Shown: one piece after another, positions 5,127 through 35,909 of the stretch
Layout of the letters: each line of letters starts with the position of its first letter
Position numbering within the stretch: position 1 is the stretch's first letter
Source of the DNA: Candidatus Bipolaricaulota bacterium
Lineage (GTDB): Bacteria; Bipolaricaulota; Bipolaricaulia; UBA7950; UBA9294
Direction of reading: 5' to 3'
Assembly (NCBI GenBank): GCA_030611415.1
Contig: JAUWPW010000001.1
Span: 18,107 to 82,106 of the forward strand
DNA: 64,000 nucleotides
Made by a program: the position numbers and the translations under genes
The notes under the pieces: model-generated
What the model saw: only the letters and a program-made list of their open reading frames with translations
Databases searched by the model: none
What the model was told of the DNA's origin: nothing

Positions 5127-5134
5127 CAAGATAT

Positions 5135-5208: not shown

Positions 5209-5214
5209 CGAGAC

Positions 5215-5289
5215 GGCGGCGTAGCTCAACCGGTTGAGAGCGCTCGGCTCATATCCGAGAGGTTCGGGGTTCGAGTCCCTGCGCCGCTA
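5215..5289 (+). tRNA. tRNA-Met elongator type (CAT); tRNA-Ile2 (lysidine) cannot be excluded
   Basis: GGCGGCGTAGCTCAACCGGTTGAGAGC...anticodon stem CTCGG/CCGAG with loop cTCATAt, T-arm GGGGTTCGAGTCCCT. Acceptor pairs 1-7. Confidence 0.7.
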
Positions 5290-5303
5290 TTGATCGTAGC
5301 TAG

Positions 5304-5377
5304 GGGGGCGTAGCTCTAACCGGGAGAGCGCTGCGTTCGCATCGCAGAGGTTGGCGGTTCGAATCCGCTCGCCTCCA
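5304..5377 (+). tRNA. tRNA-Ala (anticodon CGC)
   Basis: G3:U70 Ala identity pair in acceptor GGGGGCG/CGCCTCC, anticodon loop tTCGCAt, T-arm GGCGGTTCGAATCCGCT. Confidence 0.8.
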
Positions 5378-5541: not shown

Positions 5542-6471
5542 CTAGTATTTGATGTGCCATAGCAGGAAGCCGACAAGTGAAGACAACAGGCTGACAACAG
5601 TAAGAACACAAACAGTTTTCCTTGTTCCCAAACGTGCTGCTAGGCGATGATGAATATGTTGTTTATCTCCCGCAAAGATTGACCTACCACAAGAGAGCCG
5701 CCGGACTATGGCAAACAGAATATCACTCAGCGGAACACAGGCAAGGAACAGGGCTGGAACAATGGCCCAACCGATCCCCTGTGTACTCTTCCGAAGAACA
5801 AGAAGAGATCCCACAGCAAATAGGTATCCAAGTAATTCGGCGCCGGTATCCCCCAGAAGCAAGCGGGCAGGATAGCGATTTAGCGGATAGAAACCAATAA
5901 GCGAACACAACACAGTAAGGCTAAGCCCTATTCCCACATAATTTGTCATTTGACAGGAGAGAACAAACATAACGACAAGTGGCGGCAGAAGGATGCTCGT
6001 CACCAATCCATCTAATCCATCAATCAAGTTAACCGCATTTGTCAATCCTAGAATATAGAACAACGGGATGATATACCAAGCCATTCCAAGGTTGATGGAA
6101 GAACCAAATAGGCTTAGATGGGCAAGCGGCAAACCAACCAGGGCAAGTATGGCCGCTACACCTTGCCCCAACAGCTTCTGCCAAGGGGAAAGATCAATCA
6201 GGTCATCGACCAATCCAACTAAGAAAACGACCCCGGCCCCAAGAAGGAAGAAGTAGTTAGGGCCTGGAGACATGAAGACCCCGCCGGCAAGAATGCCAAG
6301 GAGAACTGCCGGACCACCAATTGGGCGGCCATCCTCCCTATCACGCAATGCCCAGTAACGCTTGGCATAGCAGATTAGGAAACCACTAACTAGCGTTACA
6401 CTAAATGAAAAAACCGCTGACATGAATAGCGTGTGGCTCATAGTCTCAAAGTGTAGATACATAACAGACAA
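5542..6471 (-). CDS. Glycosyltransferase family 4 (MraY/WecA-type polyprenyl-phosphate sugar-1-phosphate transferase)
   Basis: Multi-TM protein with NLIDGLDGL and VDDLIDLSP motifs typical of the WecA/TagO/MraY superfamily. The start may be a downstream Met (6441 or 6423). Confidence 0.7.
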   Translation of the reverse strand: MSVMYLHFETMSHTLFMSAVFSFSVTLVSGFLICYAKRYWALRDREDGRPIGGPAVLLGILAGGVFMSPGPNYFFLLGAGVVFLVGLVDDLIDLSPWQKLLGQGVAAILALVGLPLAHLSLFGSSINLGMAWYIIPLFYILGLTNAVNLIDGLDGLVTSILLPPLVVMFVLSCQMTNYVGIGLSLTVLCSLIGFYPLNRYPARLLLGDTGAELLGYLFAVGSLLVLRKSTQGIGWAIVPALFLACVPLSDILFAIVRRLSCGRSIFAGDKQHIHHRLAARLGTRKTVCVLTVVSLLSSLVGFLLWHIKY

Positions 6472-6520: not shown

Positions 6521-7528
6521 ATGGCAACAAATGTAGCAGATAAAGAAAGGAACCGCTGCGCGATCTCTTCTCTACTCCTTGTTCACCCCGGAACAAACCG
6601 CACAGAAAAGGGTCGAGAAATGGCCGCGCCACTTATTAGCAATGACCCCAAGGAACAAGGGCTTATTACACGTGGGATCCATCCAGATCTGATTGAACTC
6701 ACGTCTCTTCCCGGGAAGGATAAAGTGGGGATCGCTCAGGTGCGAGATGCAATCAGACAAGGACATTTCTCTCCCCTCCAAGGGCAAAGAAAAGTATGCT
6801 TGATCTCATATGCGGAAACGCTGACCATCGAAGCAGCGAACGCGCTCCTCAAGATCTTGGAAGAACCTCCGAAAAGCCTTGTCTTCTTACTGCTAGCAGA
6901 GAACGCCACAGATATCTTGCCTACAATCCTCTCGCGTAGTTCTGTAGTGCGACTCGTTCCACCTTCAGAAAAACTCCGCTTGGCTTGCTTAACAACTGCG
7001 GGATACAGCAAAGAAGATGCCCACTACCTGCTTACAGTATTCAGGGGTAAGCAGGAAATACCTGGTTCGTTTCTTGCGAAACATCAAGATATTGGCGCGC
7101 TGCGCAAGAAGGAGGAGAATCGCGCCTCCTCTTCTACGGAGCAATCCCTCATTGAAATGCTCACCTCTAAAGACCTAATCTCTCGATATGAGGGAACTCT
7201 TGCCTTTCTCAAGCTTTTGAGCCAGAGCAAGGGAGCACTTGTCGTACTAGGAGCAAGGAAACTGGCGCAAACAGGACGTAAGGAAGTAGAGATCTTTCTA
7301 CAGGAAATGCTCTACATATCCCTGGATCTTCTATATGCGCAGCTTTCTGTCCCTTCCTCACGTTTCGATGAAAGAATTCGTTCACTAACCAATAATATGA
7401 CAATAAGAAAAGTCTTGCGGTTTTCGAAATCCGTAGCAAACGCATTGCACTCAATAGAGGTATACAGCCCGCTGGAGACAGTGCTGCTTTCAGTTTTTCT
7501 TGCTTCTGGAGAGTTAGTCGATGAGTGA
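6521..7528 (+). CDS. holB: DNA polymerase III delta-prime subunit, N-terminally short
   Basis: GIHPDLIELT...KVCLISYAETLTIEAANALLKILEEPP...ILPTILSRSSVVRL aligns with the E. coli delta-prime sensor/SRC region from about residue 75. An alternative start is 6620. It is followed by yaaT/PSP1, as in the conserved holB-yaaT arrangement. Confidence 0.7.
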   Translation: MATNVADKERNRCAISSLLLVHPGTNRTEKGREMAAPLISNDPKEQGLITRGIHPDLIELTSLPGKDKVGIAQVRDAIRQGHFSPLQGQRKVCLISYAETLTIEAANALLKILEEPPKSLVFLLLAENATDILPTILSRSSVVRLVPPSEKLRLACLTTAGYSKEDAHYLLTVFRGKQEIPGSFLAKHQDIGALRKKEENRASSSTEQSLIEMLTSKDLISRYEGTLAFLKLLSQSKGALVVLGARKLAQTGRKEVEIFLQEMLYISLDLLYAQLSVPSSRFDERIRSLTNNMTIRKVLRFSKSVANALHSIEVYSPLETVLLSVFLASGELVDE

Positions 7529-19808: not shown

Positions 19809-19836
19809 TTGACCCTGAAGTTGATACCGGTATAAT
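19809..19836 (+). promoter_or_regulatory. Putative sigma-70 promoter for the aconitase gene
   Basis: TTGACC-N16-TATAAT read directly. An AGAGGTGA RBS and the start codon cluster follow within 20 nt. Confidence 0.4.
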
Positions 19837-19853: not shown

Positions 19854-21758
19854 ATGACTGTGTCCAAAACAATAACAGAGAAAATCCTTTCGCGGCACAT
19901 ACAGAAAGGGAGCTTAAGCAAAGGAACAGAAATCGGAATACGGATCGATCACTGTCTAACACAAGACTCTACTGGGACAATGGCATGGCTCGAGTTTGAG
20001 TCACTTGGCTTAGAACGCGTCAAGGCAGAGCTTGTTGTCTCCTATTCGGATCATACCTCACTAGGATTCAAAGGCGAATCAACCGATGACCATGCCTTTC
20101 TTAAAACAATAGCCTCGCACTACGGAGCCAAGTTCTCCAAGAACGGGAATGGCGTATGTCATCAGCTTCACTACGAACGTTTCGGCGCACCGGGCAAAAC
20201 ATTGCTCGGTTCTGATTCTCACACACCAACGGCTGGCGGACTGGGAATGCTTGGGATTGGTGCTGGTGGAATGGATGTAGCCGTAGCAGCAGGAGGAGGG
20301 CTTTTTCATCTCGTTGTCCCCAAGGTGATGCGAATAGTCCTCAAGGGCAAGCTTTCATGGGGAGTGGCAGCAAAAGACATTGCGCTAGAGATTCTACGGC
20401 GAATCTCGGTAAAGGGGGGAGTGGGTTACTTTATCGAGTTTGCTGGCCGCGGTATAAAGAACCTTTCAGTACCACAACGAGCAACAATTACTAACATGTG
20501 CACGGAAACCGGAGCAACTTCTTCAATCTTCCCCTCAGACAAGGTAACACGGGAATTCTTACGTATGCAAGGTCGCGAGGAAGACTGGGCCAAGCTTATT
20601 CCAGACGCCAATGCCAAATACGATAAGAGCTTAGAAATCGATCTTTCTTCATTGAAACCGCTTATAGCAATGCCAGGAATGCCAGACAATGTCTATGATA
20701 TTGAAGAAGTTCTAGGAACAAAGATCGATCAGGTCTTCATAGGTTCTTGTACCAATGGAGGTTATCACGACATCAAGATTGTCGCAGAGATGCTCAAGGA
20801 CAAGCATGTCTCTACAGACTTCGATGTGATTGTCTCTCCCGCGTCCAAGCAGGCATGGGAAATGTTGTTAGAGGATGGAAGTTTCTTCGATCTTACCAAA
20901 GCTGGAGTACGCATGATCGAACCTGGCTGTAATGCATGCATCGGAATTGGCTTTGTCCCCGGATATGAGCATTTGTCCCTGCGTACGGTAAATCGGAACT
21001 GGAAGGGGCGTGGGGGAAACAAGTTCGGGAAGATCGCGCTCTGTAGCCCTGAGGTAGCAGCTGCATCTGCACTTGCCGGACGAATAGCTGATCCACGCGA
21101 GCTTCCACCGGTGAAAATCAAGATCGATCGCCTCATCATAGATGACTACCTCATTATAAAACCATCTGGAGCGGGGAGTCCCATCAGACGCGCACCAAAC
21201 ATCGTTCAACTGGAGCCACAAGAACCACTTACTCCGCTTCTTGAAGGAGAAGTACTGCTCAAGCTAGGCGACGGTATCTCGACTGATGACATCCTCCCGG
21301 CAGGACCGCTCACACAGCACCTACGCAGCAACCTTCCCGAGATAGCTAAGTTTACCTTCTACTATGAGGACAAGAGCTTCGCGGAGCGCGCCCTGGAAAA
21401 GGGTGGTGGATTCATCGTTGGAGGCGACAACTACGGGCAGGGTTCATCGCGCGAGCACGCAGCCCTTACTCCATGGCAACTAGGAATCAAGGCGGTTTTC
21501 GCGGAGAGCTATGCTCGCATCCACCGCGCCAACCTGATTAACGTAGGGATCATCCCATTTACTTGCGATACAAATACCCTGGATCAGGGAGATCGACTGG
21601 AGGTAGACGTATCTGACCTCAACCGGGAATTGAGCGTTGACAACAAGACAAAAGGAAGCACCATTAAGATACGTCACGATCTTTCTCCGCGTGAAATCGA
21701 GATGATAGGAACCGGTGGCCTACTCGCCTATACTGCACAAAAACACAGTGAAAAGTAA
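19854..21758 (+). CDS. Aconitase-family hydratase, ~635 aa (Aquifex-type putative aconitate hydratase)
   Basis: Aconitase catalytic domains plus a C-terminal swivel domain (GDNYGQGSSREHAALTPWQLGIKAV). Its length matches the small bacterial/archaeal AcnA-like family. The start is ambiguous among GTG 19851, ATG 19854 and GTG 19860. Confidence 0.75.
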   Translation: MTVSKTITEKILSRHIQKGSLSKGTEIGIRIDHCLTQDSTGTMAWLEFESLGLERVKAELVVSYSDHTSLGFKGESTDDHAFLKTIASHYGAKFSKNGNGVCHQLHYERFGAPGKTLLGSDSHTPTAGGLGMLGIGAGGMDVAVAAGGGLFHLVVPKVMRIVLKGKLSWGVAAKDIALEILRRISVKGGVGYFIEFAGRGIKNLSVPQRATITNMCTETGATSSIFPSDKVTREFLRMQGREEDWAKLIPDANAKYDKSLEIDLSSLKPLIAMPGMPDNVYDIEEVLGTKIDQVFIGSCTNGGYHDIKIVAEMLKDKHVSTDFDVIVSPASKQAWEMLLEDGSFFDLTKAGVRMIEPGCNACIGIGFVPGYEHLSLRTVNRNWKGRGGNKFGKIALCSPEVAAASALAGRIADPRELPPVKIKIDRLIIDDYLIIKPSGAGSPIRRAPNIVQLEPQEPLTPLLEGEVLLKLGDGISTDDILPAGPLTQHLRSNLPEIAKFTFYYEDKSFAERALEKGGGFIVGGDNYGQGSSREHAALTPWQLGIKAVFAESYARIHRANLINVGIIPFTCDTNTLDQGDRLEVDVSDLNRELSVDNKTKGSTIKIRHDLSPREIEMIGTGGLLAYTAQKHSEK

Positions 21759-21762
21759 AGCG

Positions 21763-21960
21763 TGATGGGTAATGAGTGATGCGTAACAGAAAGCCAGTCC
21801 ATAGTCCAAGGTCCAGAGTCGAGAAACGGTGATGGGTAAAGAGTAACAAGTGAAAGGCCAGGAACTGAAAAACAATGACTGATGGCTGAGAGCTGACCGC
21901 TGATAGCTGTTTGCTGATAACTGTAATGAGTGATGGGCAAGGAGACGTAAATAGTAACCA
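21763..21960 (+). repeat. Dispersed repeat family 'A', copy 1 (core 21763-21820) plus degenerate tandem reiterations of the GTGATGGGTAA box
   Basis: GTGATGGGTAATGAGTGATGCGTAACAGAAAGCCAGTCCATAGTCCAAGGTCCAGAGTC starts 5 nt after the aconitase stop. Further GTGATGGGTAAAGAGTAACA, GAGCTGACCGCTGATAGCTG and GTAATGAGTGATGGGCAAGGAG modules follow. Confidence 0.8.
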
Positions 21961-22062
21961 GTAATGTGCCTTCGCGATAGACGGCAAGGAGTCAATCGTC
22001 TAGCACCTCGTCCAAAGAGGAGGGTCGTTATTAGAGGGGTGTGCTCTTCCCTCGCCTAACTG

Positions 22063-22091
22063 TTGACAGACATTCACTAATAAGTTATTAT
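22063..22091 (+). promoter_or_regulatory. Putative sigma-70 promoter of the IclR gene
   Basis: TTGACA-N17-TATTAT read directly. Confidence 0.45.
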
Positions 22092-22107
22092 GCCCACATA
22101 CTGAGAA

Positions 22108-22132
22108 CGTGTTCCCAGGATATGAGAACACG
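22108..22132 (+). promoter_or_regulatory. Inverted repeat CGTGTTC-N11-GAACACG between promoter and IclR start, a candidate autoregulatory operator
   Basis: Perfect 7-bp inverted repeat flanked by GAGAAC direct repeats, 19 nt upstream of the start codon. Confidence 0.35.
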
Positions 22133-22150
22133 ACCTAGAGGCGAGCAGGC

Positions 22151-22900
22151 TTGAACACGCTGGAAAAATGCGTCAGAATTTTGACTCTATTTAGCGAGAC
22201 TAAGCCCACAGCAACTGTCTCGTACATTGCGAAGCAACTTGGGCTTCCCACCAGCACGATTTACCGCTATATCGCTATGCTAAAGCAAAGCGGGCTGATC
22301 GAACAAACGGGCAAGGCAGGAATGTACTGCCTAGGCACAAAGATCCTGGAGCTTGCCCACAATGTTCCCAAAAAGAGCCTACAAGAAACTTCTCTTCCTA
22401 TTATGGGTCAGCTATCAAGGGAGACAGGAGAGACCGTTACTCTCACTGGACTACGCGAGCATGATGGGATTTGTCTAGAGAAAGCGGATGGACACCATGC
22501 TTTCCGTGTCTCCTATGAACGCGGAACCACCTTTCCCTTGCATGCTGGAGCATCTGGCAAGGTTCTTCTCGCCTATCTCGATCCACAGAAACAAGACCAA
22601 ATCATCAGAAAATTGAAATACGACAAATTCTCCGAGACTACAATTACGGAACCCAAGCGATTGAAAGCTGAAATTGCAGCAATCAAGAAGCAGGGGTTTG
22701 CGCTAAGTAATGGAGAGATCATCCGCGGAACCTACGGCATCGCGGCCCCCATTTTCTCGCTGTCTAGGAATGTCATTGCCGCCCTGAGCATCTCTGCACC
22801 AAACCACCGTCTAGAAGAAAAACAACGAAAACAAATGGCCCATTTGATAGTAGCGGCAGCTGGAAAGATCACGGATGAACTTGCTTTATATGAGGTGTAA
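22151..22900 (+). CDS. IclR-family transcriptional regulator
   Basis: N-terminal HTH (KPTATVSYIAKQLGLPTSTIYRYIAML) and a C-terminal IclR effector domain, 249 aa. Confidence 0.8.
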   Translation: MNTLEKCVRILTLFSETKPTATVSYIAKQLGLPTSTIYRYIAMLKQSGLIEQTGKAGMYCLGTKILELAHNVPKKSLQETSLPIMGQLSRETGETVTLTGLREHDGICLEKADGHHAFRVSYERGTTFPLHAGASGKVLLAYLDPQKQDQIIRKLKYDKFSETTITEPKRLKAEIAAIKKQGFALSNGEIIRGTYGIAAPIFSLSRNVIAALSISAPNHRLEEKQRKQMAHLIVAAAGKITDELALYEV

Positions 22901-22950
22901 AAACCTTTAGAAACTAAACCTGGAAAGAAAAAGGAGGATCAATCTCAATC

Positions 22951-24267
22951 ATGACCAAGGAAAGCTCCAGCATACCCAAGAGTGGTGACTCGATCGAATT
23001 GACTGGCCAAGGGCTAAGTGTTCCCAACTATCCTATTATCCCCTATATCCGAGGGGATGGAATCGGGACAGACGTGACACCAGTGATGCTAAAGGTGGTC
23101 GATGCCGCCGTTGCGAAAGCATACGGCAGCAAGAAGAAGATTCAGTGGCTCAAGGTATGGGCTGGCGATGAAGCGATCGCGAAAAATCACTCGGAACTAT
23201 CTGAAAACGAAATCAAGGAAATCCCCGCAGAAGAAAGACAGAAGCTTTACTTGCCGGATGAAACAACTGCAGCCATCCGTAAGCACTTGGTTGCCATTAA
23301 AGGTCCACTGACAACACCAGTAGGAGGGGGAATCCGCAGCTTAAACGTAGCACTACGTATAGTGCTTGATCTGTATGCCTGTGTTCGTCCAGTCCATCAT
23401 ATCGGCACCCCAGCACCTGTAAAACGGCCGCAAGATCTGGATATCGTATTCTTCCGCGAGAATACAGAGGATGTCTACTCCGGAATTGAGTGGCGTGCCG
23501 GTACACCGGCCGCAAAGAAGGTCATAAGCTGGCTGGAACAGGAAATGGGTGTCACCAGCATACGTTTTACGGAGATGTGCGGAATCGGAGTCAAGCCGGT
23601 CAGCGAACAGGGAAGCAAGAGGCTCATTCGCGCAGCAATTGAATATGCGATCAAGAACAACAGAACATCAGTCACCATGGCACACAAGGGAAACATCATG
23701 AAATTCACCGAAGGCGCATTCCGTGATTGGGGATACGAAATTGGTGAACAATATGCACAGATTATTACCGAACAGGCTCTGTTTGAGACCTATGGCGGAA
23801 CAGTTCCTTCGGGAAAGATCGTGCTGAAAGACAGAATCGCAGACCAGTTTTTCCAGCAGATGCTGCTTAGGCCAACGGAATACGACGTAGTTGCCACACT
23901 AAACCTAAATGGTGACTACATGTCCGATGCGGCAGCAGCACAAGTAGGAGGACTAGGAGTCGCGCCAGGCGCAAATATCAACTACAAGACAGGTTGTGCC
24001 ATCTTTGAGGCAACACACGGAACAGCTCCCAAACATGCGGGGAAGAACGAAGTAAACCCGGGTAGTATTATCCTATCCGCAAGTGAAATGCTTCAATACA
24101 TGGGATGGAACGAGCCCGCTAGACTAATCCTTAGCGGAATCGTAGGCGCAATTTCCTCTAAACGGGTCACCTATGACTTGGAACGACAAATGGAGGGAGC
24201 AACACTACTTTCCTGCTCAGAATTTGGTGACGAAATCATCAGCAGAATGCAAGAAGAAGGTGAATAA
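22951..24267 (+). CDS. icd: NADP-dependent isocitrate dehydrogenase (prokaryotic homodimeric type)
   Basis: [25 protein letters not shown] and [19 protein letters not shown] motifs. An AAAGGAGGA RBS sits upstream. Confidence 0.88.
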
Positions 24268-24270
24268 CTA

Positions 24271-25554
24271 ATGGCACAAAAGGGAATACGTGAATATGAC
24301 GCAAAGCGTCTTTTGGCAAAGGCAGTCCCAGAGATTTCAGGAAACAAGCTGCGCTTTAACGATGAACTTGTTTTGGTATCGCCAGAAACTGACCTTGAAA
24401 CACTACCAAACAAGCACACGTGGCTAAAGGATCAACACCTTGTTGTAAAGCCCGACCAGTTGTTTGGAAAGAGAGGAAAGAACAACCTGCTGCTTATCAA
24501 CGTCGATTATGATCAAGCGAAAGCATGGATTACGGAGCAAATGAACAGACAGATCACAATCAAACAAACAAACGGCGAAACATCTGGAACCTTAACCCAC
24601 TTCTTGGTGGAACCATTTGTTCCACACGAGAAAGAGTACTACCTGGCATTCACGTCAAAACGAGAAGTAGATGTTATCCACTTCTCTACCAAGGGCGGGG
24701 TCGACATTGAAGAGGTCTGGGATTCAGTGGTTACAATCGAAGTCCCGGTATTGGCAGACCCGGCAGAGGTTGATATTGCCTCTCATCTCCCTGACATTGC
24801 TAATAAAGGAGCCTTATCGGAATTCATAAAGGTTCTATACCGGATCTATTGCGAGTTTCACTTTGCCTACCTTGAATTCAACCCAATTACCTTCCTTAAT
24901 GAAACAATTGTCCCACTCGACACCGTGGCCAAACTAGATGACACTGCTGCATTTCAGTGTGCTGAGAGATGGGGCAAGGTTGAGTTTCCCAAGCCATTTG
25001 GTAGCAGCAACACCAGAGAAGAAGCGTACATCGCTAGCCTAGATGAAAAAACAGGTGCTTCGCTCAAGCTAACCTTGCTCAACCCGAATGGACGTGTATG
25101 GACACTGGTCGCTGGAGGTGGGGCAAGTGTCATTTATGCAGACACGGTTGTTGACCTGGGTTTCGGAAACGAACTTGCCAACTATGGCGAGTATAGCGGC
25201 AACCCAACAACCGAACTAACCTACGAATACACCAAAACCGTTCTTGATCTCATGACACGAACACCCGACCCACACGGCCGCCCTAAGTACCTCTTAATCG
25301 GTGGTGGAATCGCTAACTTCACTGATGTCGCTAAGACATTCACAGGAGTAATAAGAGCACTTGAACAGTATAAGAGCAAGCTGCAAGAGAACAAGGTACA
25401 GATTTATGTACGCCGTGGTGGTCCAAACTACAAAGAAGGACTAGAGAGCATGCGCAAACTCGGTGAGCGCATCGAAGTACCGCTTGAGGTATACGGTCCT
25501 GAAACCCATATGACACGTATCGTTTCCCTCGCACTTGAGGAGGTTAGCCGATGA
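24271..25554 (+). CDS. aclB: ATP-citrate lyase beta (small) subunit, ATP-grasp
   Basis: The N-terminus KRLLAK...HLVVKPDQLFGKRGK matches the animal ACLY N-terminus (LVVKPDQLIKRRGK) and the succinyl-CoA-synthetase-beta-like ATP-grasp fold. The stop overlaps the aclA start. Confidence 0.8.
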   Translation: MAQKGIREYDAKRLLAKAVPEISGNKLRFNDELVLVSPETDLETLPNKHTWLKDQHLVVKPDQLFGKRGKNNLLLINVDYDQAKAWITEQMNRQITIKQTNGETSGTLTHFLVEPFVPHEKEYYLAFTSKREVDVIHFSTKGGVDIEEVWDSVVTIEVPVLADPAEVDIASHLPDIANKGALSEFIKVLYRIYCEFHFAYLEFNPITFLNETIVPLDTVAKLDDTAAFQCAERWGKVEFPKPFGSSNTREEAYIASLDEKTGASLKLTLLNPNGRVWTLVAGGGASVIYADTVVDLGFGNELANYGEYSGNPTTELTYEYTKTVLDLMTRTPDPHGRPKYLLIGGGIANFTDVAKTFTGVIRALEQYKSKLQENKVQIYVRRGGPNYKEGLESMRKLGERIEVPLEVYGPETHMTRIVSLALEEVSR

Positions 25555-27398
25555 AAGATTACGAACTTTTTACCAAAGATACCAAAGCCTTCATTTACGG
25601 AGGGCAGACTGCGGCAGTGCAAAGGATGCTTGATTTTGACTTTATGTGCCGCAAAGATGAACCAAGTGTTGTGGCAATGATTACCCCAGAGCGCAGTGGA
25701 TTCGAGCTTTTCTTCTGGGGAACCAGAGAAATCCGTATCCCACGTATCACAAGCATTACACAGGCAACCTCTCGTTACCCAACAGCAGATGTAATGATTA
25801 ACTTTGCCTCACAGCGTTCGGCGTACGATCTTACTATGGAAGCGCTTAATAGTGATTCTATCCGCACCGTTATCGTCATTGCCGAAGGTGTGCCCGAACG
25901 CCAGGAGCGAATCTTAGCCGCAACCGCCAAAGAAAAAGCGAAATGGATTATCGGTCCAGCAACAGTAGGTGGGGTAAAGGCAGGTGCTTTCAAGATCGGA
26001 AACGCCGCAGGAACGATGCAGAACATCCGCGAAGCCAAACTCTATCGCCCAGGGTCAGTTGGCTTTGTATCTGTTTCCGGAGGTCTTTCAAATGAAGCGT
26101 ACAATATTATCGCGCGCAATACGGACGGACTGAACGAAGGAGTAGCGATCGGTGGAGATGCTTTCCCCGGCTCAACACTCCTTGATCATCTGCTGCGCTA
26201 CGAGAAGAATCCGGATATCAAGATGCTGGTCTGCTTAGGAGAATTGGGAGGAACGGCAGAGTACGATATTGCCAACGCAGTCAAGGACGGGCGCCTAACC
26301 AAACCACTAGTTATGTGGGTTACTGGAACCTGCGCAAAGGTCCTTCCAGGACAGGTCCAGTTTGGCCATGCTGGCGCCAAAGCCAAGGCAGCAATAGAAA
26401 CAGCCGATGCTAAGAACGATGCCTTACGCAAGGCGGGAATTACTGTACCAGACTCGTTTGACGACTACCACGAGAAGATCAAGCAAACCTACACGAAACT
26501 GTGTGACGAGGAAATAATAACTCCGGCTGAAGACTTCACGCCTCCTAATATCCCTGTAAATTACAAACAAGCAACGGCCGAAGGCTTGGTACGAAAGCGA
26601 ACCAACTTCATCAGTACAATATGTGATGAATCAGGTGAAGTACACAACTACTGCGGTGTCCCGATCGATGAAGTGATCGAAAAGAACTACGGAATTGGGG
26701 GAGTAATCGGACTTCTTTGGTTCAAGAAGGACATTCCGGTTTATGCACGACAATTTATGGAAATGGTCTTACAGATCATTGCTGACCATGGACCTGCCGT
26801 TTCCGGCGCGCACAACACTATCGTCGCAGCTCGTGCCGGTAAAGATCTAATTAGCTCGTTAGTTAGCGGCCTTCTCACCATTGGCCCGCGTTTTGGCGGT
26901 GCAGTAAATGGCGCAGCAGAGCACTTCCTATATGGCTTCAGAAATAAGCTTGCGTCGCGCGACTTCGTAAGCCAAATGAAAGCGAAGAACGTGCGCATTC
27001 AAGGGATCGGTCATCGCCTTCACACTGTAGAGAATCCAGACAAGCGCGTTGAGCTTATGAAGGACTTCGCGCGCTCTCACTTTGAAAAGACTGACCTGCT
27101 GGATTATGCTCTATCCGTCGAACAGGTAACAAGTCAGAAGAAGAACAATCTCATCCTAAATGTTGACGGCTGTATTGGGGTATTGTTCGTGGATCTATTG
27201 CGAGAACTCAAATTCACAGACACTGAAATCGACGAAATGATTGATGCTGGCCTGTTCAATGCCTTGTTCGTCCTTGGACGCTCAATCGGCTTCATGGGGC
27301 ACTACTTCGACCAAAGACGACTACAGACTAGCCTCTACCGCCATCCTTTGGATGACATCCTCTACGATGTACCAAGTAGGCCAGAGAAAGTAGGCTAG
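25551..27398 (+). CDS. aclA: ATP-citrate lyase alpha (large) subunit
   Basis: Phospho-histidine loop QFGHAGAKA, a CoA-binding domain, and a C-terminal citrate-synthase-like domain whose IQGIGHRLHTVENPDKRVELMKDFA and NLILNVDGCIGVLFVDLL segments match ACLY. Confidence 0.85.
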   Translation: MKDYELFTKDTKAFIYGGQTAAVQRMLDFDFMCRKDEPSVVAMITPERSGFELFFWGTREIRIPRITSITQATSRYPTADVMINFASQRSAYDLTMEALNSDSIRTVIVIAEGVPERQERILAATAKEKAKWIIGPATVGGVKAGAFKIGNAAGTMQNIREAKLYRPGSVGFVSVSGGLSNEAYNIIARNTDGLNEGVAIGGDAFPGSTLLDHLLRYEKNPDIKMLVCLGELGGTAEYDIANAVKDGRLTKPLVMWVTGTCAKVLPGQVQFGHAGAKAKAAIETADAKNDALRKAGITVPDSFDDYHEKIKQTYTKLCDEEIITPAEDFTPPNIPVNYKQATAEGLVRKRTNFISTICDESGEVHNYCGVPIDEVIEKNYGIGGVIGLLWFKKDIPVYARQFMEMVLQIIADHGPAVSGAHNTIVAARAGKDLISSLVSGLLTIGPRFGGAVNGAAEHFLYGFRNKLASRDFVSQMKAKNVRIQGIGHRLHTVENPDKRVELMKDFARSHFEKTDLLDYALSVEQVTSQKKNNLILNVDGCIGVLFVDLLRELKFTDTEIDEMIDAGLFNALFVLGRSIGFMGHYFDQRRLQTSLYRHPLDDILYDVPSRPEKVG

Positions 27399-27509
27399 CA
27401 AGACACAGGCAGCCGGCAAGTCATGGCTTGCTATCTGACTATCGCTTGCCGGTTGTCTTTTGTTTCACTTCATCTTATCATAAGTGCCATCGGGATAGAA
27501 GGTGATGAG

Positions 27510-28019
27510 ATGAAAAGGGTGCCAGATTTCCTCACTGTTTCTCGAAGTATGATCGCAGTTGGGATCATTCTTCTTGGGATCAAAGGGCCGGATGCGCTAG
27601 AACTGGTGATCCTGTTTACCATAATTGGATGGACAACGGATATCTTGGACGGCCGCATTGCCCGCCATTACTACAAAGAAGCAACCTGGTTAGGAGAACG
27701 TGAATTTGCATTTGACGTGATACTGATCTTCTCCGGATTGTGTTACTTAGTAATGGCAGGGTTCGTCCCATTTCTTCCCGCTGCAGTTTACTTGGCAAGT
27801 GCGGCTGTTTTTATGATCTATTTCCGTTCAAAATCCGTCACCATGTCTCTTGCGTTTCCTTTGGCCGTTCTCCCTTTTGTTGTAGCCTATTTCAACGCTC
27901 CATGGGCAGCCTTGCTGTATGCCATTTGGACGGTTACTGTTCTACTGATCGATTGGCAACGCTTCAAAGGGGTTGTGCTGGAGTTCATAGAAAATGCAAA
28001 GGCTATTCAAAAACACTAG
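27510..28019 (+). CDS. Small polytopic membrane protein, divergent CDP-alcohol phosphatidyltransferase-like
   Basis: [11 protein letters not shown] resembles the D-G-x2-A-R motif, but the downstream G-x3-D-x3-D is imperfect. Four to five TM helices. Start chosen at MKRVPDF with a GGTGA RBS. Confidence 0.5.
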
Positions 28020-31457: not shown

Positions 31458-31694
31458 ATGGAGGTTTTTATGGCGAGAGGAGCTGTAGTAATTGACAGAG
31501 AACGCTGTAAGGGGTGTGGGCTGTGCATTGCCGCTTGTCCTAAGAAAGTTCTAGCCTTCTCTAGTGAGCTGAACAACAGTGGCTATAACGTTGTACACAT
31601 GGAACATCCGGAAGATTGTATTGGTTGTAGCTTCTGTGCTTTGACCTGTCCGGATGTAGCAATCGAGGTCTACCGCGAGGAAATCTCAGTATAA
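31458..31694 (+). CDS. oorD: 2-oxoglutarate:ferredoxin oxidoreductase delta subunit (2x[4Fe-4S] ferredoxin)
   Basis: Two CxxCxxCxxxCP clusters (CKGCGLCIAACP and CIGCSFCALTCP). It is first in the D-A-B-C order, as in Helicobacter oorDABC. Confidence 0.75.
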   Translation: MEVFMARGAVVIDRERCKGCGLCIAACPKKVLAFSSELNNSGYNVVHMEHPEDCIGCSFCALTCPDVAIEVYREEISV

Positions 31695-31703
31695 GGAGTA
31701 GCC

Positions 31704-32759
31704 ATGGGAAAACGTTTACTGTTAAGGGGGAATGAGGTAATTGCCGAGGCAGCTATCCGCGCTGGTTGTCAGTGCTACTTTGCCTACCCGATCACACCGC
31801 AGGCAGAGCTATTGCAGCACATGGCGGTAAACATGCCAAGATTGGGCCGAACATTTATCCAGGCAGAAAGCGAACTTGCGGCAATTAACATGGTTTACGG
31901 AGCCGCCTCTGCCGGTGTACGTACGATGACTTCATCATCTTCACCCGGTATCAGTCTTAAACAGGAAGGAATTTCTTACCTTGCTGGTTCAAATCTACCT
32001 GCGGTTATAGTCAACATTGTACGTGGTGGGCCTGGACTAGGAGACATAGCCCCCTCTCAATGTGATTATTTTCAAGCAACCAAAGGCGGCGGACACGGAG
32101 ATTATCACATGATAGTCCTCGGCCCATCGACCGTACCAGAGGCAGGACAACTAACTATGCTTGCTTTTGAGCTTGCCGATCAATATCGCACTCCTGTCAT
32201 GCTTCTCGCCGATGGAATGCTGGGCCAGATGATGGAGCCAGTAGAACTCCCTGAACCAATTGAAATCAGCTCGTTACCACAGAAAGAGTGGGCAACTAAT
32301 GGCGCCAAAGGGCGTGATCCAAATATTATCCTGAGTTTTGATCTTGATCCTGAGGTACTGAAACAGATGAACCTTATCTTACAGGAGCGCTACCGCCAAA
32401 TTGAAGCAAAAGAAGTCCGTTATGAAGAAACGGCGACCGGTGATGCAGATATTGCTATTGTTGCCTATGGTACGGTGGCACGTATCGTGAAGACGGTAAT
32501 CAAAATGGCAAGAGCAGAGGGAATAAAACTTGGCCTATTCCGCCCAATCACTTTGTGGCCATTCCCAAGTCAAGCACTTAAGAAACTCTCCGAAAAAGTA
32601 GCCACGGTGCTCACCGTAGAAATGAGTGCGGGACAGATGTGGGAAGATGTAAGGTTGGCAATAGCTGAACGAGCAGAAACACCGTTCTATGGAGAGATGG
32701 GTGGTGTCATTCCAACCCCTCAACGGATCCTAAGCGAGGTGAAGAAGCATGCCGGTTGA
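31704..32759 (+). CDS. oorA: 2-oxoacid:ferredoxin oxidoreductase alpha subunit
   Basis: KorA/PorA-like domain I/II, 351 aa, overlapping the beta-subunit start. Confidence 0.8.
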   Translation: MGKRLLLRGNEVIAEAAIRAGCQCYFAYPITPQAELLQHMAVNMPRLGRTFIQAESELAAINMVYGAASAGVRTMTSSSSPGISLKQEGISYLAGSNLPAVIVNIVRGGPGLGDIAPSQCDYFQATKGGGHGDYHMIVLGPSTVPEAGQLTMLAFELADQYRTPVMLLADGMLGQMMEPVELPEPIEISSLPQKEWATNGAKGRDPNIILSFDLDPEVLKQMNLILQERYRQIEAKEVRYEETATGDADIAIVAYGTVARIVKTVIKMARAEGIKLGLFRPITLWPFPSQALKKLSEKVATVLTVEMSAGQMWEDVRLAIAERAETPFYGEMGGVIPTPQRILSEVKKHAG

Positions 32760-33507
32760 CGTACAAAACATGCAAAAAGTCTTTGCGAGACCAAACAGCT
32801 TAACTGACGCCAAGTCCACGTATTGTCCCGGTTGTCATCATGGCATCCTAACTCGTATCATCGCTCAGACAATCGACGAATTAGGAATCGTTGAACGTAC
32901 AATAGGAATCGTCCCAGTTGGCTGCGCTGTATTTGCTTACCGATGGTACCGTTGTGATGCGATACAAGCAGCACACGGCCGCGCAAGCGCGGTTGCGACA
33001 GGGGTAAAGCGAGCTAACCCCAGCCTAATTGTATTTTCTTATCAGGGAGATGGCGACTTCGCAAGCATTGGAACAGCCGAATCGATCCATGCGGCAAATC
33101 GAGGAGAAAACATAACTGTTATCTTCGTAAACAACCAGGTTTACGGGATGACCGGTGGGGAGATGGCACCCACCAGCCTTGTTGGCCAGAAAACCACAAC
33201 AACGCCACAAGGACGAGATCCCAAGCTGTTTGGTTACCCAATCCGTTTTTCAGAAATGATTGCCCAACTTGATGCACCGGTGTATGTTACTAGACAGGCA
33301 CTGTACGATACTAAGCGAATCAAAGAGGCAACAAAAGCGATCAAGAAAGCATTTACAAACCAGGTAAAAGAGAGGGGCTATTCACTGGTAGAGGTTCTCG
33401 CTACCTGCCCAACCAACTGGAGAATGAAACCAATTGACGCCAATAAACATGTCGCTAATGTAGTGGAAAAGACATACCGGCTCGGGGATTTAGTGAATAG
33501 GGGGTAA
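32749..33507 (+). CDS. oorB: 2-oxoacid:ferredoxin oxidoreductase beta subunit (TPP-binding)
   Basis: TPP motif GDGD...N (SYQGDGDFASIGTAESIHAANRGENITVIFVNNQVYGMTGG) and a Cys ligand set for the proximal cluster. Confidence 0.8.
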   Translation: MPVDVQNMQKVFARPNSLTDAKSTYCPGCHHGILTRIIAQTIDELGIVERTIGIVPVGCAVFAYRWYRCDAIQAAHGRASAVATGVKRANPSLIVFSYQGDGDFASIGTAESIHAANRGENITVIFVNNQVYGMTGGEMAPTSLVGQKTTTTPQGRDPKLFGYPIRFSEMIAQLDAPVYVTRQALYDTKRIKEATKAIKKAFTNQVKERGYSLVEVLATCPTNWRMKPIDANKHVANVVEKTYRLGDLVNRG

Positions 33508-33508
33508 C

Positions 33509-34051
33509 ATGGACAATTCAGTAGTCATAGCTGGTTTTGGTGGACAGGGTGTTATCCTTGCCGGGAAGATTCTTGCTCAAGCAGGAATGAACCATGGGCT
33601 AGAAGTAACATGGCTTCCTTCCTATGGCCCAGAGATGCGTGGAGGAACAGCAAATTGTACCGTTGTATTGTCCAACGACCCCGTTGGCTCACCAATTGTC
33701 GATAACCCAACAGCGCTCATTGCGATGAACCTTCCCTCGCTTGACAAGTTCGAATCAACGGTTGCAACAAACGGGGTAATCATAATGAATTCCTCACTCA
33801 TTCAACGCAGAAGAAAGCAAAAAGATGTACGATCATTCTCTCTTGCACTAAACGATCTAGCGCAAAAAGTAGGAAGCGTAAAGACAATTAACATGATCGC
33901 TCTTGGGGCCTATATCAAAGCATCTGGGATCATCCCGCTTTCTACAATTCAGACAACGATGGCACAAATGCTGAAGAAGGACGGCAAAGACAAATTTATC
34001 CCTCTAAACAGGAAAGCCCTCAAGGAAGGATATAACGCACTCCAAGAATGA
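33509..34051 (+). CDS. oorC: 2-oxoacid:ferredoxin oxidoreductase gamma subunit
   Basis: [25 protein letters not shown] is typical of the Kor/Por gamma N-terminus. There is a 1-nt gap after the beta subunit. Confidence 0.8.
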
Positions 34052-34652: not shown

Positions 34653-35909
34653 CTAAACCCAACCTCGCAACCGCATTGCTTCGGCAACCCGCTGGACAGC
34701 AACCATGTAGGCAGCCGTTCGATTATCAACATTATTCTCTTGCGCCATCTGGTGAACGGCATGGAATGCCCGAGTCATTTTCTCTTGTAGCCGTTTGTGC
34801 ACGTCCTCTAGTGTCCAGTAGTATCCACCGATATTCTGGACCCATTCAAAATAGGAAACAGTCACTCCGCCAGCATTACACAGGAAATCAGGGATGATGT
34901 ACGTTCCCTTGCTGCACAGAATCTCATCTGCCTCAGGGGTAGTAGGTCCATTAGCTGTCTCCGCGATAATCTTAGCCTTTATGGCATCAGCGTTCTCTTC
35001 GGTAATTACATTCTCAATCGCTGCCGGAATCAGTATATCCACATCTAGTTCAAGGAGCTCCTGATTGGTAACCGACCTTGTGCCAGTAAGTCTGGTAACA
35101 GATCCGGTCGCCTTCTTATGCTCGAATGCAGCTTCGGGATCGATGCCATCTTCTGTGTAAGCTCCGCCACGCGAGTCAGTAACAGCAACAATCTTGCTGC
35201 CAGCAAGCTCTTGCATCAGCTTCGCTGCAAAGAATCCCGCGTTTCCATAGCCCTGAATGGCCACAGTTGACCCTTTGAGAGGAAGATCAATTACCTTGGC
35301 GGCTTCGAAGATACTATACACCGTTCCACGAGCAGTGGCATCCCCACGACCCAGTGATCCACCAACTGGAATTGGTTTACCTGTAATGACACCAGGAGCG
35401 TTATAGCCAACAAGTTTGGAGTACTCATCCACCATCCATGCCATAATCTGTGGTGTTGTATACACATCTGGCGCTGGTATGTCCCTCTCTGGACCAATAA
35501 AACGACCAACAGCACGGACATAACCACGCGCGACACGTTCCAGCTCCCAGGCGGAAAGCTCCTTGGGATTGCAGATAACCCCACCCTTCGACCCACCGTA
35601 TGGAATATCAACAACGGCACACTTCCATGTCATCCATGCGGCAAGCGCCTTAACTGTATCAACTGTCTCCTCGGGATGAAAGCGAAGTCCACCCTTTGTT
35701 GGACCACGGGCATCATTGTACTGCACGCGGAACCCAGTGAACAGCTTTGCCTTTCCGTCATCCATACGAACAGGAAAATGAACCTCGAGCGTTCGCATTG
35801 GCTCCCGTAGAAGAGCATGTATGTCTGGGTCAAGATCAAGCTTCTTTGCTGACTTGTCCAGTTGTCGTTGTGAAACCTCAAATGGGTTGAACATTGGGCC
35901 ATTGACCAT
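34653..35909 (-). CDS. gdhA: Glutamate dehydrogenase (Glu/Leu/Phe/Val dehydrogenase family)
   Basis: GGSKGG catalytic lysine region and NAD(P) Rossmann motif GYGNAGFFAA, 418 aa. Confidence 0.85.
   Translation of the reverse strand: MVNGPMFNPFEVSQRQLDKSAKKLDLDPDIHALLREPMRTLEVHFPVRMDDGKAKLFTGFRVQYNDARGPTKGGLRFHPEETVDTVKALAAWMTWKCAVVDIPYGGSKGGVICNPKELSAWELERVARGYVRAVGRFIGPERDIPAPDVYTTPQIMAWMVDEYSKLVGYNAPGVITGKPIPVGGSLGRGDATARGTVYSIFEAAKVIDLPLKGSTVAIQGYGNAGFFAAKLMQELAGSKIVAVTDSRGGAYTEDGIDPEAAFEHKKATGSVTRLTGTRSVTNQELLELDVDILIPAAIENVITEENADAIKAKIIAETANGPTTPEADEILCSKGTYIIPDFLCNAGGVTVSYFEWVQNIGGYYWTLEDVHKRLQEKMTRAFHAVHQMAQENNVDNRTAAYMVAVQRVAEAMRLRGWV

Follow-up and report, generated by a model that had tools for sequence, protein, structure and literature searches.

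A conserved aconitase–IclR–isocitrate dehydrogenase–ATP-citrate lyase locus in a Candidatus Bipolaricaulota bacterium, a putative branch of a split TCA cycle

The closest described counterpart of the locus reported here comes from the same phylum. In Candidatus Bipolaricaulis anaerobius Ran1 (Hao et al. 2018, ISME J, PMC6092417), the genes BARAN1_v2_0732-0736 have a like order, and the supplementary data set lists aco (0732), icd (0734), aclB (0735), and aclA (0736); 0733 is an unlisted gene at the place taken here by iclR. Ran1 is a different species, and the likeness is one of annotation tables. That paper holds no discussion of a regulator, an operator, or the ATP-citrate lyase (ACL) clade of Ran1. 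It predicts a chemoheterotrophic fermenter with an anabolic partial or incomplete TCA cycle in which ACL is the listed citrate step; its tables list no citrate synthase and annotate no sdh/frd complex and no canonical fumarate reductase. A related cluster is found in Cloacimonadota (Williams et al. 2021, PMC8542988). Its ACL belongs to the same clade (65–69% identity) and acn lies directly upstream of aclBA, but a monomeric isocitrate dehydrogenase (IDH) is encoded downstream of aclA and iclR is missing; citrate synthase is absent from 10 of 10 Ace Lake Cloacimonadota MAGs. Chadwick et al. (2022, PMC9012536) interpreted ACL, aconitase, and IDH of ANME-1 and ANME-2c archaea, which operate there without citrate synthase, as an incomplete oxidative arm in which ACL works in the ATP-producing direction; that reading comes from genomes, and these archaea have no IclR-containing operon.

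Relatives of the ACL with solved structures are also available. The enzyme of Methanothrix (Methanosaeta) concilii, ACLY-A/B (PDB 6hxi/6znw), is likewise two-subunit, although its host is archaeal; AclA of the present locus is 59% identical to it over the full length and retains its catalytic His and Asp. In the 6znw chain, as compared with 6hxi, Ala replaces the aligned catalytic Asp. Animal ACLY (e.g., human, PDB 6o0h and 6poe) differs in being a single fused chain, with a regulatory linker, that works in the cytosol toward acetyl-CoA for lipid synthesis, but residues 490–1097 of the human protein are 56% identical to AclA, and residues 1–419 align with AclB, with the citrate-site residues conserved. 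The classical enzyme of the reductive TCA (rTCA) cycle, AclBA of Chlorobium and other Chlorobiaceae (PDB 6hxj; cluster P0290), resembles the present one in domain architecture and chemistry, yet it comes from a host with a complete rTCA cycle, and its AclA is only 38–39% identical (383–394 bits, against 820 for M. concilii). By these identities, the ACL is assigned to the Methanothrix/eukaryote-like clade, and the Chlorobiaceae proteins formed a long separate branch in a neighbor-joining tree. More distant AclA-like proteins (35–42% identity) are present in CPR bacteria.

The locus lies in a 64-kb window, i.e., the whole stretch of DNA that was analysed, from a Candidatus Bipolaricaulota (Acetothermia/OP1) bacterium; the closest AclA homologues (78–95% identity) belong to Bipolaricaulota/Acetothermia MAGs. 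The predicted cluster of aconitase, IclR, NADP-IDH, and aclBA is real: the five ORFs, their domains, and the catalytic residues are present (Table 1), and every peptide string quoted in the prediction was found in the translations. The intergenic gaps are 50 nt (iclR–icd), 3 nt (icd–aclB), and −4 nt (aclB–aclA, a 4-nt overlap).

Table 1. Coordinates of the genes and candidate control elements of the locus (positions in the window)
Feature	Position	Strand	Basis
acn–aclA cluster, five ORFs	19.8-27.4 kb	+	all five confirmed
candidate sigma-70-type promoter of acn, TTGACC-16-TATAAT	19809..19836	+	11/12 consensus positions
acn, alternative upstream starts	GTG 19851, ATG 19854	+	ORF calls
acn, aconitate hydratase, TIGR01342/PRK07229 ('Aquifex/Clostridium-type'), 632 aa	19860..21758	+	Pfam, NCBIfam, orthologue start
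promoter of iclR-icd-aclB-aclA unit, TTGACA-17-TATTAT	22063..22091	+	11/12 consensus positions
operator box 1 TGCCCACATACTGAGAA, proposed IclR binding site	22091..22107		TTCYCA-N5-TGAGAA with one mismatch
operator box 2 TTCCCAGGATATGAGAA, proposed IclR binding site	22112..22128		exact TTCYCA-N5-TGAGAA match
iclR, IclR-family transcription regulator, 249 aa, TTG start	22151..22900	+	PF09339 + PF01614
icd, homodimeric E. coli-type NADP-isocitrate dehydrogenase, 438 aa	22951..24267	+	TIGR00183
aclB, ATP-citrate lyase beta subunit (ATP-grasp + citrate-binding domain), 427 aa	24271..25554	+	PF24948 + PF16114
aclA, ATP-citrate lyase alpha subunit, 615 aa	25551..27398	+	PF00549 + PF00285

By domain content and alignment, AclB and AclA are a genuine, catalytically intact two-subunit ACL, and the identification first proposed for the 427-aa and 615-aa proteins is borne out. 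AclB contains Citrate_synth_N (PF24948, 258 bits) and Citrate_bind (PF16114, 290 bits). In AclA, a CoA-binding/CoA-ligase part (Ligase_CoA, PF00549) with phospho-His273 precedes the C-terminal citryl-CoA lyase domain, and the citrate-synthase-like domain anticipated there was detected (Citrate_synt, PF00285, 84 bits). Against known structures, AclA scored 820 bits with M. concilii ACLY-B, 764 with human ACLY, and 383 with C. limicola AclA; the corresponding values for AclB were 520 (ACLY-A), 401, and 161 (C. limicola AclB). Among non-ACL enzymes in the PDB, AclA reached at most 103 bits with succinyl-CoA synthetase (SCS) alpha, 75 with CCS, and 46 with CCL. Alignment to human ACLY in native numbering maps the conserved catalytic residues H760, H900, H975/R976, and D1026 to H273 (within QFGHAGAKA), H413, H488/R489, and D539 of AclA. 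The citrate-site residues G309, N346, T348, and R379 are likewise kept in AclB as G310, N349, T351, and R382.

The other two enzymes are assigned by curated models. The aconitase has the domains PF00330 and PF00694 and exceeds the cut-offs of both NF005558 (775 bits, cut-off 612) and TIGR01342 (742 bits, cut-off 719). Its start is most likely the GTG at 19860, also the gene call in L001, because orthologues share the ribosome-binding site GAGGTGAT and the N-terminus; in them this site is followed, after 4–5 nt, by GTG/TTG-(S/P)-(K/Q)-T. The ATG at 19854 falls within the site. The icd product scored 615 bits with TIGR00183, the prokaryotic NADP-IDH model (cut-off 567), and 534 bits with E. coli NADP-IDH structures.

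The order acn-iclR-icd-aclB-aclA is kept in every Bipolaricaulota-type locus with enough flank (acn upstream of aclBA in 6/6). Distant IclR or AclA orthologues led to four further contigs. Three of these repeat the order, and in the remaining one, L082, acn is 4.5 kb upstream. Outside the phylum, in loci with enough flank, acn directly precedes aclBA in 11/11 cases in Cloacimonadota and 21/22 in Thermoplasmatota, and an IDH gene adjoins the module in 13/13 and 27/29, respectively. The type of IDH varies between loci, being monomeric (PF03971) in 34 and dimeric (Iso_dh) in 17. Judged from gene neighborhoods, the core acn-aclBA-idh module is conserved in a range of anaerobes that includes Cloacimonadota and Thermoplasmatota, and any of three IDH types can fill the idh place.

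The regulator consists of HTH_IclR (PF09339) and IclR_C (PF01614) domains and scored below the cut-offs of all named NCBIfam equivalogs (BhcR, PcaR, KdgR, and IclR). Its named orthologues (47–100% identity) are all from Bipolaricaulota/Acetothermia, and three sampled at 49–50% identity all lie within the same cluster. In the alignment of orthologous promoters, the TTG start matches an ATG in L062. E. coli IclR/aceBAK, KdgR, PcaR/PcaU, and BhcR share the two-domain fold family, and E. coli IclR and its kin likewise control a central-carbon branch point through a palindromic operator over the promoter. The present IclR differs in its proposed half-site, TTCYCA/TGRGAA, and in having its gene inside the operon it probably regulates.

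Six orthologous promoters, when aligned, bear out the predicted iclR promoter: all share the −35 TTGACA, and the −10 is conserved as TAnnAT. Downstream of this promoter, the palindrome CGTGTTC-N11-GAACACG, originally proposed as the operator, is present exactly at 22108–22132 and has a chance expectation of ~0.09 matches per window, even with two mismatches; its arms, however, are not conserved even at 94% AclA identity. What the motif search across orthologous promoters recovered is a candidate operator in a slightly different register: by comparative alignment, two boxes of the form TTCYCA-N5-TGRGAA stand in tandem immediately downstream of the −10. Box 2 sits within the palindrome, and box 1 has CNCAT..TGAGA columns conserved among orthologous promoters. 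The window contains five matches to TTCYCA-N5-TGAGAA against 0.9 expected, and none of 100 shuffles gave five. A box is found at the iclR promoter in L005, L007, L060, and L062 and upstream of acn in L008, L009, L011, L020, L083, L084, and L085. In related genomes it tracks the first promoter of the cluster, standing before iclR where the acn–iclR gap is long and before acn where it is 25–140 nt. In this window, no IclR-type box was found by motif search at the acn promoter; orthologous acn upstream regions have a similar TATAAT followed by the ribosome-binding site. With both promoter and operator conserved, IclR is a good candidate regulator, as had been suggested.

The explanation toward which we lean is that the conserved locus encodes a reversible citrate/2-oxoglutarate branch of a split TCA cycle, auto-repressed by IclR. 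ACL, aconitase, and NADP-IDH would interconvert acetyl-CoA + oxaloacetate (+ ADP + Pi), citrate, isocitrate, and 2-oxoglutarate + CO2 in three steps near equilibrium. In silico, iclR, icd, aclB, and aclA most likely form one transcript from the promoter at 22063–22091, which IclR most likely auto-represses through the two tandem boxes; these begin at the last −10 base and cover the transcription start region, and a small-molecule effector would lift the repression. The module probably forms one arm of a cycle that is split and incomplete, in an anaerobe that is fermentative or acetogenic and has no citrate synthase. There, ACL would run mainly in the citrate-forming, ATP-conserving direction toward 2-oxoglutarate and glutamate supply, and an abundance of citrate or C5 acids could turn the route around. 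In Desulfobacter postgatei, ACL reportedly serves citrate synthesis with a gain of ATP, in place of citrate synthase (Moller et al. 1987); that organism differs in having a complete oxidative cycle for acetate oxidation and no IclR-containing operon. Citrate synthesis by ACL needs a favorable oxaloacetate concentration, which counts against a citrate-forming direction. ACL probably replaces citrate synthase here, the absence of citrate synthase and fumarate reductase being extrapolated from related published genomes; an oil-reservoir OP1 genome has ACL and 2-oxoglutarate synthase and no fumarate reductase. Ran1 has an ambiguous soluble 'SdhA/FrdA or NadB' flavoprotein and an Fe-S protein beside fumarase and korDAB (PMC6092417). 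This pair could be a non-canonical fumarate reductase that would close the cycle, which counts against the split-cycle reading.

The module might instead be reductive but catabolic, which we regard as unlikely: ACL would cleave citrate that is either imported or made from 2-oxoglutarate, itself derived from glutamate or other amino acids, and the resulting acetyl-CoA and oxaloacetate would be fermented to acetate with a gain of ATP, IclR sensing the substrate. The reversibility of the ACL and IDH reactions speaks for this, as does the dedicated substrate-type regulator, whose kin (KdgR, PcaR, IclR) are commoner in catabolic or bypass operons than in housekeeping anabolism. The window also holds glutamate dehydrogenase (34653–35909) and oligopeptide ABC-transporter ATPases, although the adjacency of the former is confined to the closest relatives. 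In most loci, the cluster has no linked citrate or glutamate transporter; the exception is L083, where two permeases and an ABC binding protein of the amino-acid/glutamate type are encoded ~2 kb upstream. The route spends one ATP at ACL and therefore yields a small net gain. Relatives are predicted amino-acid/peptide fermenters that deaminate glutamate to 2-oxoglutarate, but the published reconstruction sends it oxidatively via Kor to succinyl-CoA, and for cleaving citrate Ran1 additionally carries citEF-like citrate lyase genes (PMC6092417).

The original prediction went further and took rTCA-based CO2 fixation by the organism to be probable; the cluster would then be the citrate-cleaving arm of a complete cycle serving autotrophic or facultative CO2 fixation, with IclR regulating carbon fixation. 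This we consider quite improbable, and rTCA autotrophy in this organism is not supported, given the Methanothrix/eukaryote-like ACL, the predicted fermenter Ran1 with the same cluster, and a 64-kb window in which no other rTCA-specific genes were found. ACL, aconitase, and IDH are all required for the rTCA cycle and all intact, but many lineages that are not known to be autotrophic carry the module, and AclA-like proteins extend to CPR bacteria. A ferredoxin-dependent 2-oxoacid oxidoreductase is encoded 4 kb downstream; by curated cut-offs, however, it is VorB-type (545 bits, cut-off 399) rather than 2-oxoglutarate synthase (249 bits, cut-off 579), and its adjacency is kept in the closest relatives only. 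For Cloacimonadota, which share the ACL clade and the cluster, an rTCA cycle with thiol:fumarate reductase and OGOR has been proposed (PMC8542988). Ran1 has korDAB, fumarase, malate dehydrogenase, succinyl-CoA synthetase, porABC, pckA, and the ambiguous FrdA/NadB-like flavoprotein (PMC6092417), yet the published ACL-bearing Bipolaricaulota/OP1 genomes are without annotated fumarate reductase. Some Bipolaricaulota assimilate 13C-bicarbonate, but this is ascribed to the Wood-Ljungdahl pathway, which is credited for autotrophy in the phylum. Finally, a misreading of an SCS or citryl-CoA synthetase/lyase pair as aclBA has virtually no likelihood and is refuted by the Pfam, NCBIfam, and structure scores: the weak SCS alpha and beta model matches are far under cut-off (136 vs. 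336 and 80 vs. 375 bits), whereas the ACL-specific AclB domains, the citrate-synthase-like domain fused to the alpha subunit, and the ACLY structure scores are those of ACL.

Collectively, the cluster is a standard, already-annotated Bipolaricaulota locus, listed in 2018 in the supplementary tables for the closed genome of Ca. Bipolaricaulis anaerobius, and its ACL is by itself no marker of rTCA autotrophy.

Five open reading frames lie on one strand between 19.85 and 27.40 kb of the window, and the last two encode, as judged from sequence, a two-subunit ATP-citrate lyase (ACL; AclBA, EC 2.3.3.8) with predicted citrate cleavage activity. AclB, the β subunit, consists of an ACL-type ATP-grasp domain (PF24948, Citrate_synth_N; 258 bits against a cut-off of 83) and a citrate-binding domain (PF16114, Citrate_bind; 290 bits). 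In the alignment, G310, N349, T351, and R382 of AclB correspond to G309, N346, T348, and R379 of human ACLY and are all conserved; the latter are reportedly the citrate-site residues (Sun et al., 2010). AclA, the α subunit, has a CoA-ligase domain (PF00549, Ligase_CoA) with the phospho-histidine loop QFGHAGAKA, in which His273 aligns with the phospho-histidine of human ACLY, H760. Its C-terminus is a fused citryl-CoA lyase domain of citrate-synthase homology (PF00285, Citrate_synt; residues 400–597, 84 bits), where H413, H488, and D539 match the citrate-synthase-type catalytic set of human ACLY (H900, H975, and D1026), again with full conservation. The position aligned to the catalytic Asp is Ala in the 6znw chain, unlike in 6hxi. 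The catalytic residues were located from their positions in the HMMER alignment with human ACLY, whose native numbering was kept. Against solved chains, AclA scored 764–820 bits with ACLY, versus at most 103 with the succinyl-CoA synthetase (SCS) α subunit, 75 with citryl-CoA synthetase (CCS), and 46 with citryl-CoA lyase (CCL), and the NCBIfam models for SCS fell far under their cut-offs on the ACL subunits. The original prediction of an ACL therefore holds: the citrate-synthase-like domain is present, and the enzyme is nearer to ACL than to SCS or CCS/CCL.

The closest named AclA homologues come from metagenome-assembled genomes of Candidatus Bipolaricaulota/Acetothermia (OP1), with 78–95% identity. 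AclA also shares 59% identity with ACLY-B of Methanothrix (Methanosaeta) concilii and 56% with residues 490–1097 of human ACLY, while a Chlorobiaceae cluster representative is 38–39% identical and the Chlorobium limicola enzyme scored 383 bits, under half of the 820 bits for M. concilii. In a rough neighbor-joining tree rooted on Chlorobiaceae and built without named Aquificae, Nitrospirae, or Campylobacterota sequences, the window AclA falls inside a tight crown group with other Bipolaricaulota, Cloacimonadota, Thermoplasmatota, Methanomicrobia, M. concilii, and the animal-type fused ACLY. Named members of the distant AclA clusters that were looked up are Chlorobiaceae, one DPANN archaeon, and CPR only. 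Two of the protein clusters (P0266 and P0312; AclA-like, 586–588 aa, 35–42% identity) are named Candidatus Saccharibacteria and Dojkabacteria, CPR lineages whose minimal metabolism makes a reductive TCA (rTCA) cycle implausible. Others (P0014, P0088, about ten similar clusters, and P0241 of 1003 aa) comprise proteins of ~1003–1040 aa that look like AclA duplicated within one chain: the first copy retains the phospho-His loop (QFGHAGA) with degenerate lyase motifs (ADRDP.., GIGHCTY), and the partial second copy has intact lyase motifs (ADHGPAVSGAHNT, GIGHRVKS, NVDGC) with the His loop degenerate or deleted. One such gene (6001–9123 of L086, a prokaryotic contig with toxin-antitoxin genes) has a normal aclB on one side and an Iso_dh gene on the other. 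These matches were rejected as prokaryotic AclB-AclA fusions, being duplicated AclA beside a separate aclB.

The aconitase belongs to the TIGR01342/PRK07229 family (775 bits, cut-off 612, and 742 bits, cut-off 719), with fused large and small (swivel) domains (PF00330 and PF00694). Its orthologues share a GAGGTGAT ribosome-binding site followed, after 4–5 nt, by GTG/TTG-(S/P)-(K/Q)-T; the start codon is thus most likely the GTG at 19860, which is also called on an identical public contig of 27.5 kb (ENA; L001). The ATG at 19854, at which the gene had been predicted to begin, falls within this ribosome-binding site. The icd product is a prokaryotic homodimeric NADP-isocitrate dehydrogenase (IDH; TIGR00183, 615 bits against an equivalog cut-off of 567) and matches E. 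coli NADP-IDH structures with 534 bits.

Positions of the cluster genes, regulatory sites, and neighboring features in the window
Feature	Position	Strand	Remarks
Six-tRNA cluster	4819-5377	+	Rfam; only Rfam matches in the window
acn candidate promoter	19809-19836		acn's own
acn	19860-21758	+	aconitase
Spacer repeats	21757-21945		between acn and the iclR promoter
iclR promoter	22063-22091		TTGACA-17-TATTAT
Putative operator box 1	22091-22107		TTCYCA-N5-TGRGAA; starts at last base of the -10 hexamer
Palindrome	22108-22132		CGTGTTC-N11-GAACACG
Putative operator box 2	22112-22128		TTCYCA-N5-TGRGAA; in tandem with box 1, 21 bp center to center
iclR	22151-22900	+	IclR regulator
icd	22951-24267	+	NADP-IDH
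aclB	24271-25554	+	ACL β subunit, 427 aa
aclA	25551-27398	+	ACL α subunit, 615 aa
CDP-alcohol phosphatidyltransferase	27423-28019	+	begins 25 nt past the aclA stop
Four-subunit 2-oxoacid:ferredoxin oxidoreductase (OFOR)	31470-34051	+	δ ferredoxin, α (VorB-type, NCBIfam), β, γ
Glutamate dehydrogenase (GDH)	34653-35909	-	after OFOR, NUDIX gene alongside

Locus conservation was assessed by tblastn of the window proteins against 80 species-representative loci, with neighboring ORFs clustered for counts. In ~50 of these loci, from both domains of life, acn lies directly upstream of aclB-aclA, a linkage that supports citrate/isocitrate as the aconitase substrate. The arrangement holds in 11/11 Cloacimonadota and 21/22 Thermoplasmatota, and an IDH gene is adjacent in 13/13 (monomeric type) and 27/29, respectively. 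The monomeric IDH (PF03971, 1274 bits) is encoded in 34 loci and an Iso_dh enzyme of ~400 aa in 17; Bipolaricaulota have the E. coli type, placed upstream of aclB. Because the type varies by lineage, the conserved unit is a three-step citrate/2-oxoglutarate module in which IDH has been replaced non-orthologously. A contig labelled Candidatus Woesearchaeota (L023) is probably mis-binned; its AclA is near-identical to that of Cloacimonadota in the tree and is followed by the monomeric IDH typical of that phylum.

Only Bipolaricaulota-type loci carry iclR, and the order acn-iclR-icd-aclB-aclA occurs in every such locus with enough flank. Distant orthologues led to four further contigs: three, reached through IclR orthologues at 49–50% identity, show the same order, and in the fourth (L082, reached through a 78%-identical AclA) acn lies 4.5 kb upstream. 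Thermoplasmatota do not have the iclR arrangement; instead, genes for a TrmB-like regulator, an AMP-forming acetyl-CoA synthetase, and a class I fumarase lie divergently upstream. The synthetase gene is divergent from acn-aclBA-idh in 11 loci (L012, L015, L024, L026, L035, L041, L046, L051, L072, L076, and L077), a TrmB/MarR-like regulator occurs in nine (one outside those 11), and class I fumarase α/β in seven. This divergent set seems to be the lineage's own equivalent of the IclR arrangement.

The regulator has an N-terminal winged HTH domain (PF09339, HTH_IclR; 45 bits) and a C-terminal effector-binding domain (PF01614, IclR_C; 150 bits), with full-length matches to the IclR-family structures 3r4k and 1mkm. 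It falls into none of the named orthologous groups (IclR, KdgR, PcaR/PcaU, BhcR, AllR), all equivalog and subfamily models scoring below cut-off (BhcR 163/350, PcaR 152/285, KdgR 124/275, and IclR 123/380 bits). Named homologues at 47–100% identity are all Bipolaricaulota, and by these comparisons the protein is assigned to a lineage-specific subgroup. Many public orthologue calls (P0124–P0131) are 192 aa long and have no HTH domain, apparently owing to a missed TTG start, so automated annotation would miss these DNA-binding regulators.

As originally predicted, iclR has its own promoter: in an alignment of six orthologous promoters the -35 hexamer is invariant and the -10 hexamer reads TAnnAT. 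The palindrome that had been put forward as the operator is exact and rare by chance (~0.09 expected per window), but its outer arms, CGTG/CACG, are unconserved across the six promoters, even in a relative with 94% AclA identity; the conserved motif is TTCYCA-N5-TGRGAA. This motif is enriched in the window, with five matches versus 0.9 expected, a count not attained in any of 100 shuffles. The box precedes iclR where the acn-iclR spacer is long (the window, L005, L007, L060, L062, and L082) and precedes acn where the spacer is 25–140 nt (L020, L083, and L085). It also precedes acn in L008 and L011 despite longer spacers, and occurs at both promoters in L009 and L084; the acn promoter of the window has no box. 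The predicted box thus tracks the first promoter of the cluster, which is good phylogenetic-footprint evidence for an autoregulated operon, and we infer that IclR would bind it, act as a repressor, and respond to an effector. In L008, the spacer holds a long inverted repeat, ACGAGAACGG-N15-CCGTTCTCGT, in two copies (6428–6470 and 6530–6572). The GAGAAC/GTTCTC within its arms resembles the operator half-site, and a duplicated operator and a small repeat element are both possible readings. The GAACACG at 22154, a third such half-site, was rejected as part of the operator, being conserved coding sequence for Asn-Thr of MNTLEK. For the 392-nt acn-iclR spacer, a riboswitch and a small RNA were likewise rejected: it has no Rfam match, and its folding z relative to shuffles is +1.06. 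Between acn and the iclR promoter lie three degenerate 21-nt purine-rich copies (AAAGCGTGATGGGTAATGAGT) and a short 14-nt tandem repeat; these repeats match nothing in Rfam and show no folding beyond that of shuffled sequence.

Elsewhere the window holds ordinary chromosomal housekeeping genes (rho, secA, hrcA-grpE-dnaK-dnaJ, pfk, pyrG, lgt, cell-envelope genes, and tRNAs). The G+C content is uniform, and since that of the cluster (0.47–0.50) matches its surroundings, there is no sign of recent acquisition. No terminator-like site separates aclA from the CDP-alcohol phosphatidyltransferase gene, which may belong to the same transcript as the ACL operon; only the closest relatives share this adjacency. 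The downstream OFOR is probably not the 2-oxoglutarate synthase of an rTCA cycle: its α subunit scores 545 bits with the VorB subfamily model (cut-off 399) and 249 with the 2-oxoglutarate synthase α model (cut-off 579). Only the closest relatives (L002, L003, and L060; ~94–95% identity) share the OFOR-NUDIX-GDH arrangement, which is therefore probably incidental.

The predicted chemistry of the module is not in doubt; the direction of flux is. The original prediction took ACL as the signature of the rTCA cycle and proposed CO2 fixation, a step against which related genomes and the autotrophic pathway attributed to the phylum both count. In the 64-kb window, ACL would represent the citrate-cleaving step of that cycle, and no fumarate reductase, pyruvate synthase, or PEP- or pyruvate-carboxylating enzyme was found. 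For Ca. Bipolaricaulis anaerobius Ran1, the only closed genome of the phylum, supplementary tables list aco (0732), icd (0734), aclB (0735), and aclA (0736) (PMC6092417), i.e., the order of the window, with one unlisted gene at the place of iclR. These tables give ACL as the citrate step, and the term "citrate synthase" occurs nowhere in them; the sdh/frd complex is "not annotated", porABC, pckA, and ppdK are present, and the authors infer a fermentative chemoheterotroph with an anabolic partial TCA cycle (PMC6092417). An OP1 genome from an oil reservoir encodes ACL and 2-oxoglutarate synthase but lacks fumarate reductase; in both genomes, 2-oxoglutarate synthase/korDAB is encoded elsewhere. 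Where Bipolaricaulota are regarded as autotrophs, the pathway is Wood–Ljungdahl. A biochemical precedent for the citrate-forming direction of ACL is reported for Desulfobacter postgatei (Moller et al., 1987). Since this gene content, pathway attribution, and precedent weigh against autotrophy, we favor a split-TCA role in which ACL takes the place of the absent citrate synthase.

Reductive but catabolic use of the module, in fermentation of glutamate, 2-oxoglutarate, or citrate, would agree with a fermentative lifestyle and a substrate-type regulator; it seems unlikely; the GDH/OFOR adjacency that might support it is limited to the closest relatives, and the OFOR is VorB-type by its model scores. 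That the cluster is the citrate-cleaving arm of a complete rTCA cycle for autotrophic or facultative CO2 fixation is quite improbable, given that fumarate reductase is absent or not annotated in related published genomes, although in Ran1 the fumarase and korDAB genes neighbor those for an Fe-S protein and a flavoprotein of ambiguous, FrdA/NadB-like type, and an rTCA cycle via thiol:fumarate reductase has been put forward for Cloacimonadota that share this ACL clade (PMC8542988). Returning to the split-TCA role, we tentatively propose that in citrate-synthase-less anaerobes such as Bipolaricaulota the IclR-controlled module would be the sole way into the oxidative TCA branch and ACL would serve as a citrate synthase that conserves ATP; if the same holds clade-wide, rTCA would be over-called for the eukaryote-like ACL clade.

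To date, ACL has been reported in OP1 (2016), the gene order tabulated for Ran1 (2018; PMC6092417), an ACL-aconitase-IDH cluster noted in Cloacimonadota (2021; PMC8542988), and an oxidative reading proposed for ANME (2022; PMC9012536). The window adds a species to a known kind of locus, otherwise an ordinary, already annotated feature of the phylum. Three incremental additions appear to be undescribed in the literature consulted: the embedded, phylum-wide iclR gene, the conserved predicted operator that shifts to the leading promoter, and the acn-aclBA-idh module that spans both domains and in which three IDH types can replace one another. The conserved operator offers an experimental handle: the IclR effector would reveal the switching signal and, therefore, the direction of the module. 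Metagenome studies widely take ACL genes as a diagnostic rTCA marker. The ACL clade of this locus travels with aconitase and IDH across many anaerobic bacteria and archaea, several of which either have no citrate synthase or do not yield a complete cycle. Reading autotrophy from this eukaryote-like clade is unsafe, and its ACL should not count as support for an rTCA-based autotrophic lifestyle. If the split-TCA role is true across the acn-aclBA-idh clade (Cloacimonadota, Thermoplasmatota, ANME, and Methanothrix), surveys that score AclA/AclB as an rTCA marker would systematically over-call carbon fixation.
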